Of a DNA stretch of 64,000 bases, positions 26,396 to 27,055 are shown piece by piece (within the stretch, counting starts at the first letter, position 1; every line of letters begins with the position of its first letter). The position numbers and the translations under genes are program-made. The stretch comes from an uncultured Lachnospiraceae bacterium. Lineage in GTDB: Bacteria; Bacillota; Clostridia; Lachnospirales; Lachnospiraceae. The stretch lies in NCBI GenBank assembly GCA_944383765.1, contig CALWQT010000014.1, positions 463-64,462 of the forward strand, read 5' to 3'. Under the pieces are notes generated by a model. That model ran no database searches. It had not been told where the DNA came from and saw only the letters and a program-made list of their open reading frames with translations.

Positions 26396-26424
26396 TGGTC
26401 CATCATACCCGATAGGTTTCTGCA

Positions 26425-26523
26425 ATTGGGTCCACCGTATTGACTCATGATAAACTGAGCAATTTTAGGATCTGGATTTTTGATTTTTACCGGATACTGC
26501 AGTCTTTTTTCATAAACCCACAT
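26425..26523 (-). pseudogene. cotJC: cotJC (manganese-catalase-family spore coat protein), N-terminal about 33 codons only, interrupted by the prophage
   Basis: MWVYEKRLQYPVKIKNPDPKIAQFIMSQYGGPN matches the conserved CotJC N-terminus (MW[VI]YEKKLQYPV...QYGGP[DN]GE...). After N33 the frame runs into phage DNA (CRNLSGMMDHYF...). TGATG overlap with cotJB. Confidence 0.65.
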
Positions 26524-26843
26524 CAGTCATTACCTCCTTCCCAAGGCCACGGACCTTTTACCCAGGTCCAGCTTGTAGTAGAATTTTCCTGGTCTTTCAT
26601 AAGAGGACCATATTGATCTATATATGCATTCATAGCCTGGTTTCGGAGACTTTTCACATACTGATAATAATTCAGAGCGTCTCTGTCCATAGGGTGAGTA
26701 TCCAGATACAGAGTAACGTCGTCTAGAGCAAAGCTGGATTGATCAAGAGCCTGAAGAATCTGTGAGGCATCTGATACCGGAGCGCCATTGGCTGAAATTC
26801 CCATGGCAGCCATGTTTCTATTCATATAATTCATGATTGACAC
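26523..26843 (-). CDS. cotJB: spore coat protein CotJB
   Basis: 106 aa. ...FALDDVTLYLDTHPMDRDALNYYQYV...QYGPL is the CotJB signature; between cotJA and cotJC. Confidence 0.8.
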   Translation of the reverse strand: MSIMNYMNRNMAAMGISANGAPVSDASQILQALDQSSFALDDVTLYLDTHPMDRDALNYYQYVKSLRNQAMNAYIDQYGPLMKDQENSTTSWTWVKGPWPWEGGND

Positions 26844-27055
26844 CTCCCCATTTCAAATGGAAGATCTAGATCAGGGAAAATGGTTCCCCGGCTGAAGCCC
26901 ATGCCCAGATCATAAGTCTGTTGCCATTGCTGCATAGGGACATAGGCCATTCCAACGGGAAAAGACATGGAATTGAGAGGGGTTGCCTGGGACGCATTCA
27001 TAAACAGCGGCCTTACGGCAGGACCAGCAGGAATTGGTGAGATATATCGATCCAT
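26831..27055 (-). CDS. cotJA: spore coat-associated protein CotJA
   Basis: 74 aa. GMAYVPMQQWQQTYD...GTIFPDLDLPF is the CotJA signature; AAGGAG RBS. Confidence 0.8.
   Translation of the reverse strand: MDRYISPIPAGPAVRPLFMNASQATPLNSMSFPVGMAYVPMQQWQQTYDLGMGFSRGTIFPDLDLPFEMGRCQS

Follow-up and report, generated by a model that had tools for sequence, protein, structure and literature searches.

We analysed a 64,000-nucleotide stretch from an uncultured Lachnospiraceae bacterium (GenBank assembly GCA_944383765.1, contig CALWQT010000014.1, positions 463 to 64,462; hereafter the window) around the point at which a prophage meets the spore-coat operon cotJABC (positions 26396 to 27055). The operon runs on the minus strand and, as in B. 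subtilis, is presumably expressed in the mother cell. Its first two genes, cotJA and cotJB, are intact and overlap, and a TGATG sequence joins cotJB to the next open reading frame (ORF). This coupled arrangement had been described in the first-pass annotation of the DNA; all of its coordinates hold, and both products match their Pfam families (Table 1). The start at the ATG of 26834, which gives a CotJB of 103 residues, is the one used by public gene calls, and the 74-residue cotJA product recurs on all conspecific contigs that we read around the exact CotJB.

The third reading frame is called as an ORF of 73 residues. Its residues 1–33 are the N-terminus of CotJC (26523 to 26425 by tblastn), as annotated at first pass, and its match to Mn_catalase (PF05067) is confined to this N-terminal segment. 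The coding frame of cotJC is thus cut after codon 33, inside the operon. The conserved continuation of the family, GE..AA.RYL, is gone, as the earlier reading had it: the intact CotJC of L013, the nearest relative with an intact cotJC, goes on with QYGGPDGEIGASMRYL (QYGGPD-GEIGASMRYL), whereas the window reads QYGGPNCRNL. From there the frame runs into the end of the prophage, and its last 40 codons (residues 34–73) are the antisense of the 3' end of the endolysin gene, the stop codon of which lies 31 bp from the recombination core described below. By tblastn, no further piece of cotJC is present in the 64-kb window. The 73-residue ORF could be taken for a genuine short protein, a case that the first-pass annotation had itself raised against its own reading; it is called as a gene, and 17 alleles fall in one cluster. 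Yet only its residues 1–33 resemble anything, the remainder being antisense endolysin, and the missing 222 residues of CotJC stand in frame at the other junction. We have rejected the short protein, the probability of which is vanishingly small.

Table 1. Features of the prophage and of the cotJ operon in the window
Feature	Position	Strand	Evidence and remarks
P2-like contractile-tailed prophage body, continuing past the left window edge	1..23681	+	Pfam; contiguous with the cotJC stump on 4 public contigs
Terminase (gpA)	2565-4412	+	Pfam
Portal (lambda-type)	4656-6197	+	Pfam
Capsid	7813-9348	+	Pfam
Sheath	11380-12831	+	Weak match, E 2.6e-4 (the other Pfam matches are strong)
Tail tube FII	12828-13343	+	Pfam
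Tape measure	13816-17184	+	Pfam
Baseplate	20014-21841	+	Pfam; baseplate J/W/V/I, including Tail_P2_I
Lysis and end module, common to strains with differing phage bodies	23682..26395	+	Homology
Holin, r1t-type	24556-24804	+	PF16945
Endolysin, last phage gene, convergent with the cotJC stump	25580..26395	+	Amidase_2 and choline-binding repeats
Called 73-residue ORF, continuing past the cotJC codons through phage DNA	26523-26302	-	
Phage-derived attP arm AAACCTATCGGG	26408..26419	-	Perfect inverted repeat of CCCGATAGGTTT, phage side of attL
Recombination core (attR copy), cotJC codons 28-33	26426..26442	-	CAATACGGTGGACCCAA here; CAATACGGTGGACCCGA in other strains and at attL
cotJC 5' fragment, codons 1-33 only	26425..26523	-	tblastn; Pfam Mn_catalase N-terminus
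cotJB, intact	26523..26843 (GTG start) or from 26834 (ATG)	-	PF12652, E 4e-29
cotJA, intact, first gene of the operon	26831..27055	-	PF11007, E 5.7e-18; 74 residues
Possible mother-cell-type promoter of the cotJ operon, AC-N16-CATAAACTG, weak call	27093..27119	-	Read from the sequence

The two halves of cotJC share a recombination core

In the public collection, 77 indexed blocks contain the exact 103-residue CotJB. Among 23 contigs read, the 10 distinct places listed all carry the same 73-residue stump followed by the same 271-residue endolysin gene, and a variant with a 98% identical CotJB has the same arrangement. A search with the C-terminal two-thirds of a relative's CotJC found the 3' half, called as a protein of 260 residues (P0033; L and P numbers denote compared loci and proteins) that reads ...GFFLPDRFL|QYGGPDGEIGASLRYL.... 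This call comes from two NCBI contigs (201,848 and 108,138 bp) that also carry the 5' junction and a CotJB identical to that of the window. Both halves point the same way there, with 38.6 kb between their cores. The gene of a 488-residue large serine recombinase (LSR) directly precedes the 3' half and overlaps it, and this LSR-overlapping fragment is found on L114, L115, L116 and L119. A third contig (601 kb, ENA) is known from cluster membership to hold alleles of both the 73-residue ORF and the LSR. The remainder of cotJC, expected from the first-pass annotation at the other end of the prophage, is located after the LSR gene on the conspecific contigs.

The DNA of the 5' junction is ATCATGAGT[CAATACGGTGGACCCGA]TTGCAGAAACCTATCGGG and that of the 3' junction is CCCGATAGGTTTTTA[CAATACGGTGGACCCGA]CGGGGAAATAGG, with the core bracketed. 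Common to the two is a 17-bp direct repeat, CAATACGGTGGACCCGA (5' junction of L002; 3' junction of L114/L115, 10097-10113). The first-pass annotation had pointed to about 26396–26430 for an attachment core, and one was found at 26426–26442; the copy in the window differs by one substitution and is the single match there, against 0 expected by chance. In the reconstructed attP the core is flanked symmetrically by the 12-bp arms CCCGATAGGTTT and AAACCTATCGGG. A core set symmetrically between inverted arms is the anatomy expected of a serine-integrase attP, and the break in cotJC is a site-specific recombination junction. The repeat at both junctions of the conspecific contigs bears out the earlier claim of a prophage insertion inside cotJC and shows it to be truly site-specific, and we regard LSR-mediated insertion into this gene as practically certain.

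When the halves were joined in silico, with the sequences of the conspecific contigs rather than the window's own, an intact CotJC of 255 residues resulted. It aligns over residues 1–190 with B. subtilis CotJC at 50% identity and is 90% identical to its relatives. A product of about 190 residues had been anticipated; the intact frame was obtained, and the extra length is a low-complexity tail. One of the nine allele combinations tested is found unchanged among public sequences, as P0322 on a Logan contig of 1,077 bp; the predicted site, empty or excised, is thus real. P0322 is the one intact allele among the 16 listed members of the 30-member cluster of cotJC 3' parts, and the empty or excised site looks rare. 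That the cotJC fragment might be an old relic of the whole species was considered and rejected, because the 3' half is intact, constrained and correctly placed. Exact searches for the DNA of the window's species gave 0 matches to the 5' junction in GTDB genomes, 0 to the 3' junction or attB in JGI metagenomes and 0 to attP in IMG/VR; the species is essentially absent from these collections.

A recombinase family that accompanies split cotJC

The precomputed Pfam annotation assigns Resolvase, Recombinase and Zn_ribbon_recom domains to the 488-residue LSR, which also matches PHROG 95 (integrase). Representatives of its family match PF00239, PF07508 and PF13408, and the alignment of the family (A1) has an invariant YxRVST motif. 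The best integrase match in deposited phage genomes is 36.5% identical to the LSR. With CotJC residues 34–198 as the query, the 3' fragment was found on 151 IMG/VR viral contigs, and 80 of these loci were kept for counting. The fragment starts at residues 17–30 in 75 of the 80 and at about 61–65 in the other five, never at residue 1 and usually near a contig edge, and an LSR 34–65% identical to the present one lies directly upstream in 52. The search was also run from the recombinase: an LSR profile found 78 loci in GTDB genomes, in 71 of which a cotJC fragment is present, in most cases no more than about 200 bp from the LSR. Carriers include Hungatella hathewayi DSM 13479, Lacrimispora xylanisolvens DSM 3808, L. 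sinapis JR3 and several Blautia, and the nearest named relatives of CotJC and of the recombinase belong to Lacrimispora, Hungatella and "Clostridium" species. The shared core, of 17 bp here, measures 5–9 bp in other members and still falls in the GGNGGNCC codons. Judged by this association, the LSR belongs to a family dedicated to the cotJC site.

The search for a sporulation promoter upstream of the LSR gene turned up a conserved block, GGAGCGTCCTGGCAAGGGGCGTATTTTTTGTAC (L114:8540-8575). L119, L136 (H. hathewayi) and L129 have the block as well, again before a recombinase gene of the prophage type, although the proteins are only about 63% identical. One exception to the usual arrangement was seen in a metagenome-assembled genome from rabbit gut (L144:4001-6133), in which a recombinase of the family is followed on the same strand by an apparently full-length cotJC (residues 1–197).

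Different phages occupy the same site

The occupants of the site differ among strains behind a shared lysis module of 2.7–4.3 kb. They are a sipho-like phage (L002, L005), a Mu-like myovirus (L003), the P2-like myovirus of the window and of L004, and a short remnant, L009, in which the lysis module is joined directly to a lysogeny module. Homology of the window to the sipho-like and Mu-like prophages begins at 23682. The claim that a myovirus splits cotJC thus holds for the P2-like prophage of the window and fails as a general description, other strains having a sipho-like phage, a Mu-like phage or the short remnant in its place. The LSR side varies as well, being connected with at least two distinct early regions. 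Neither the endolysin of the window (best match 67%) nor its Tail_P2_I protein has a close relative in IMG/VR.

The host flanks are 99–100% identical among strains, and the divergence jumps to about 4% exactly at the core; the window also has its own allele of the endolysin C-terminus. Both observations favour independent LSR integrations. The lysis module, attP and the LSR gene form one contiguous block when the phage is circular. The simplest reading of these comparisons would be a mosaic family of phages that share the lysis–attP–LSR block and integrate independently of one another.

In L009 (946-8438), homology switches about 1.7 kb past the endolysin gene to a lysogeny module, with a pair of helix-turn-helix genes, SNIPE/T5orf172 and Fic, that precedes the recombinase in other contigs. 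This locus looks like a skin-like remnant that has been stripped of all structural genes.

Mini-elements and further insertions in cotJC

In seven genomes the whole element inside cotJC is only 2.45–3.2 kb long (L158:2664-5437, from Lacrimispora xylanisolvens DSM 3808; L156, L157, L159, L149, L167 and L171). These mini-elements encode the LSR, a PdaC/DUF3298 protein, a 53-residue ORF and a small protein with an NYIEI motif. Two tandem copies are present in some genomes (L161, L166, L153, L142).

Other positions of cotJC are also interrupted, at codons ~61–65 (the DIGTEE motif) and ~134–136. The former was seen in IMG/VR in L051, L074, L082, L083 and L091, and the recombinase at this site in L082 is unrelated to the main family (22% identity). 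Middle fragments occur in GTDB genomes, covering residues 22–67 (e.g. L154, L155, L160 and L163) or residues 30–136 (L120, L121 and L174). In some strains of the window's own species the 3' part of cotJC is split again, at ...ENMAA|EQKAR... (codon ~134), which leaves the gene in three pieces. The second insert is a mobilisable element of 8.7 kb (L116:10422-19126, also L117 and L118; proteins P0179, P0182 and P0180) with a 521-residue serine recombinase of the DUF4368 type, a relaxase, MobC/NikA and a TraG-like coupling protein.

Constraint on the split gene and a conserved small protein

In the seven species with small elements, the split 3' parts of cotJC contain no stop codons and evolve with omega values of 0.02–0.08. 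For a trio of close species, synonymous divergence (dS) is 0.16–0.25 for the LSR gene and 0.07–0.20 for cotJC, and omega of the LSR is about 0.1; the similar dS of the two genes suggests that they were inherited together. In more than 30 loci, mini-elements and prophages alike, the LSR is found together with a protein of 50–60 residues that has the conserved NYIEI motif. This protein matched no Pfam or PHROG family. In the species of the window its gene directly follows a cro-like gene. It is the obvious candidate for a recombination directionality factor. The upstream region of the small gene retains GGAAACAAGTACAAYC-N7-8-CATACA about 20 nucleotides before the ribosome-binding site, and AC-N16-18-CATAY is present in 27 of 33 unique upstream regions. 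The arrangement is similar to that of a sigmaK/E promoter with an overlapping SpoIIID-like box.

Proposed excision in the mother cell and its alternatives

We propose mother-cell excision by analogy with SPbeta in spsM and skin in sigK. The region 26396–27055 is the right-hand junction of a temperate phage that the LSR integrated into codons 28–33 of cotJC (the conserved QYGGPD motif). Integration leaves cotJA, cotJB and 33 codons of cotJC on one side and, in the conspecific genomes, the LSR gene followed immediately by the in-frame 3' part of cotJC on the other. Recombination between the two copies of the core restores the intact CotJC of 255 residues. In this reaction the LSR would work with the small co-inherited protein of 50–60 residues as its directionality factor, the gene of which would be driven by the conserved sigmaK/E-like promoter with its SpoIIID-like box. 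The element would be cut out in the mother cell, where cotJC would be expressed from the repaired operon, while the forespore chromosome would keep the prophage. We consider the insertion and its mechanism established. For sporulation-coupled excision in this family of elements, the comparative data leave a chance that we place a little short of even; the reading as a whole, of an LSR phage inserted in cotJC and excised in the mother cell, we hold to be evenly balanced.

Several points weigh against this proposal. Neither B. subtilis nor C. difficile requires cotJC (PMC11222575, PMC12122855), and its disruption may therefore just be tolerated. The one intact allele comes from a contig of 1,077 bp, and the putative promoter of the small gene is recognised by a motif match. 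Other points concern the strain of the window. The ENA scaffold ERZ28614662:scaffold_696 (65,545 bp) is the window at 100% identity over the overlaps of about 14 kb that were checked, with the window at its positions 441-64440. The scaffold ends 440 bp to the left of the window, and the other prophage end, with the window's own attL, therefore lies beyond the contig. In the closest phage relative (L001, L198 and L202, overlapping stretches of contig 1196, GCA_965643355.1), the structural genes of which are 97–99% identical, a leftward walk through the three stretches reached no LSR and ended in a tyrosine integrase (L202:13086-14126) beside unrelated host genes; the strain of the window could accordingly be a hybrid without the recombinase and the 3' half. 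On the 108-kb contig, a P2-like phage (L199, GCA_964261755.1 CAXVQW010058031.1, record 91045-108138) lies about 20 kb beyond the sipho-type cotJC prophage and in direct orientation. If both prophages carry the lysis module, recombination between the modules could create the arrangement of the window, and it would in that setting remove the LSR and the 3' half of cotJC.

The relative with the tyrosine integrase and the neighbouring prophages of the 108-kb contig both speak for a dead end at the window's junction, that is, for a P2-like tyrosine-integrase prophage fused to the cotJC stump by homologous recombination through the lysis module that it shares with a former cotJC prophage, with the LSR, the 3' half of cotJC and the intervening host DNA deleted or displaced. 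In GCA_965643355.1, moreover, contig 1195 begins within the lysis module and the end of contig 1196 falls, by extrapolation, near the module start, which suggests that the module is repeated in that assembly. A crossover inside the module should, however, leave the sipho-type allele beside the core, and the junction-proximal 350 bp are a distinct endolysin allele, unlike that of the sipho-type cotJC prophages. At one and the same gene boundary, 23682, three different phage bodies give way to the module, a pattern of modular phage mosaicism around a single lysis–attP–LSR block, and the different early regions on the LSR side and the same continuous path on four public contigs also speak against the fusion, which we judge improbable. 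The same path, from P2-like tail through lysis module to cotJC stump on four separate contigs, bears on a chimera, in which the assembler would have joined the stump to the wrong phage body via the repeated module. The source is a metagenome scaffold, and the module is apparently repeated in at least one assembly; a repeat would normally break the contig, as it did in GCA_965643355.1, and a chimera is very improbable. We therefore lean, with modest confidence, to a window prophage that retains the LSR and the 3' half of cotJC at its far end.

Two further observations were made on integrases and their surroundings. Homologues of the 345-residue protein of the lysogeny region adjoin LSRs in L035 and L133, which is not decisive as a link between P2-like phages and the LSR. 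A Logan contig of 20,601 bp, with P0191 and P0318, may connect a lysogeny gene of the P2 type with the 3' part of cotJC. The non-coding stretch of about 270 bp directly upstream of the integrase gene (L202:12608-12937) is 80–88% identical to that of several serine-recombinase elements (L146:3510-3777, L197:3495-3773, L139, L183, L120, L121 and L035).

Serine integrases commonly target conserved coding sequence, and the insertions could as such be ordinary lysogeny with gene disruption. The QYGGPD stretch would then be a conserved, dispensable landing site, lysogens would lack CotJC, and excision would follow prophage induction without being part of sporulation. The occupants are different and apparently intact phages with ends about 4% divergent, which resembles ongoing infection more than domestication, and the gene of the candidate directionality factor in the prophages lies in the early lytic operon, right after the cro-like gene. 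Mutants of the cotJC family have no strong coat defect (PMC11222575, PMC12122855). Set against this explanation are the non-phage mini-elements of 2.45–3.2 kb, which persist across species with the LSR and the small protein, and the strong purifying selection on split cotJC, including the trio with apparent co-inheritance of the element. The sigmaK/E-like motif before the small gene is conserved even inside phage operons. On none of the 10 contigs listed (of 23 read) is cotJB followed by an intact cotJC, and the intact allele is as scarce in the 3' cluster as given above. We regard ordinary lysogeny as unlikely, though it retains appreciable weight.

More tentatively, and with some doubt, we suggest that gut Lachnospiraceae (Lacrimispora, Hungatella, Enterocloster, Blautia and relatives) have in cotJC a hub for DNA that is excised during development, with several sites in the gene. 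One LSR lineage, with its directionality factor and mother-cell promoter, would be specialised on codons 28–33 and would occur in infectious phages of several morphotypes as well as in domesticated mini-elements of 2.5–3 kb; unrelated LSR elements would use codons ~61–65 and ~134. If this were true, the coat gene of some strains would need to be reassembled from three pieces in the mother cell. No programmed rearrangement of a coat gene would have been documented earlier, nor any such system described for commensal gut Clostridia.

Comparison with known intervening elements

Only a few genes, mainly of Bacilli and of a small number of pathogens, are known to undergo programmed DNA excision in the mother cell. 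The known targets are sigK (skin), spsM (SPbeta), spoVFB, spoVR, gerE (gin; PMC5595907) and yabG (yin; PMC10747680). SPbeta in spsM of B. subtilis (SprA/SprB) is similar to the present case in that an apparently complete temperate phage, which carries an LSR, splits a spore-envelope gene expressed in the mother cell. The small directionality-factor gene of SPbeta belongs to the early region of the phage, under a sigmaE/K-type promoter of its own (PMC4191935, PMC5499854). The candidate small gene of the cotJC phages, which follows the cro-like gene, stands behind an AC-N17-CATACA motif that may be compared with the promoter of sprB (PMC4191935). In contrast to SPbeta, the target is cotJC and the host is a gut Lachnospiraceae, no deposited phage integrase exceeds 36.5% identity to the LSR, the small protein falls in no Pfam or PHROG family, and the cotJC case is described from sequence.

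The skin elements in sigK (B. subtilis SpoIVCA; C. difficile CD1231/CD1234) likewise have an LSR at the element edge and persist in degenerate, non-infectious versions, to which the remnant L009 and the mini-elements correspond here. In C. difficile, the directionality factor CD1234 of skinCd is driven by sigmaE and SpoIIID, with the box KRTAACARK (PMC5025042); the motif of the present small gene begins GGAAACAAG. Unlike sigK, which is essential for late sporulation and makes excision of skin obligatory, cotJC is probably dispensable, and unlike the skin site, that in cotJC is shared by full, diverse phages and mini-elements. The closest analogue of the Lacrimispora and Hungatella mini-elements is gin in gerE of B. 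cereus ATCC 10987, a minimal non-prophage element in which a serine recombinase is accompanied by a small partner (PMC5595907). It has another target gene and another recombinase lineage, and the cotJC mini-elements add the PdaC/DUF3298 protein and are sometimes in tandem. In C. difficile, the phi027 prophage boundary lies beside cotG, a CotJC homologue, and curing of the prophage changes the sporulation frequency (PMC12122855, PMC11222575); unlike the split cotJC, this cotG is described as downstream of attR and not as split.

Intervening elements have been reported in cotJC before (Abe et al. 2013, cited in bioRxiv 10.1101/2021.11.22.469490), and a skin-like element interrupts cotJC of Laceyella sacchari (bioRxiv 10.1101/2022.02.25.481979). 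The idea of cotJC as a further split sporulation gene is correct as to the insertion, and its novelty is smaller than was thought at first pass. In the literature searched, the earlier reports of cotJC give no att sites, recombinase family, population picture, cases in gut Lachnospiraceae or multiple sites in the gene. The dedicated LSR lineage, the anatomy of the att sites, the mini-elements of cultured Lachnospiraceae, the small gene with its motif and the multiple sites appear to be undescribed there.

Such an insertion habit seems widespread and barely described in gut Clostridia, and it may tie repair of a coat gene to excision of an element. The same logic of excision may be common in commensal gut spore-formers and may link prophage carriage, the composition of the spore coat and transmission between hosts. 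Cultured carriers exist in H. hathewayi DSM 13479 and L. xylanisolvens DSM 3808, and the idea is hence directly testable. The system also offers a well-defined serine integrase, attB and attP sites and a candidate directionality factor. For annotation it holds a warning, in that the split cotJC is called as "proteins" of 73 and 260 residues.

Surroundings of the cotJ operon

The weakly called promoter of the cotJ operon (Table 1) was compared with AC-N16/17-CATANNNTA, the B. subtilis sigmaK consensus. Divergent from cotJA is the gene of a small Cys/Asn-rich protein, MWCNRCCNCNCNNNNNNNNN... (window 27186-27407, plus strand), which is kept in relatives (L013:5403-5642; L017:8478-8714) and is possibly a spore-surface protein. 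A similar Cys/Asn-rich gene stands on the phage side of a cotJC junction in L017. The cotJ operon and the Cys-rich gene are inverted relative to the neighbouring cluster of sigma-factor, AI-2E-transporter and SpoIID genes (window 26523-29100 against L013:5400-9700). The low-complexity C-terminal tail of CotJC is variable, giving a total length of 255 residues here and 406 in L013.

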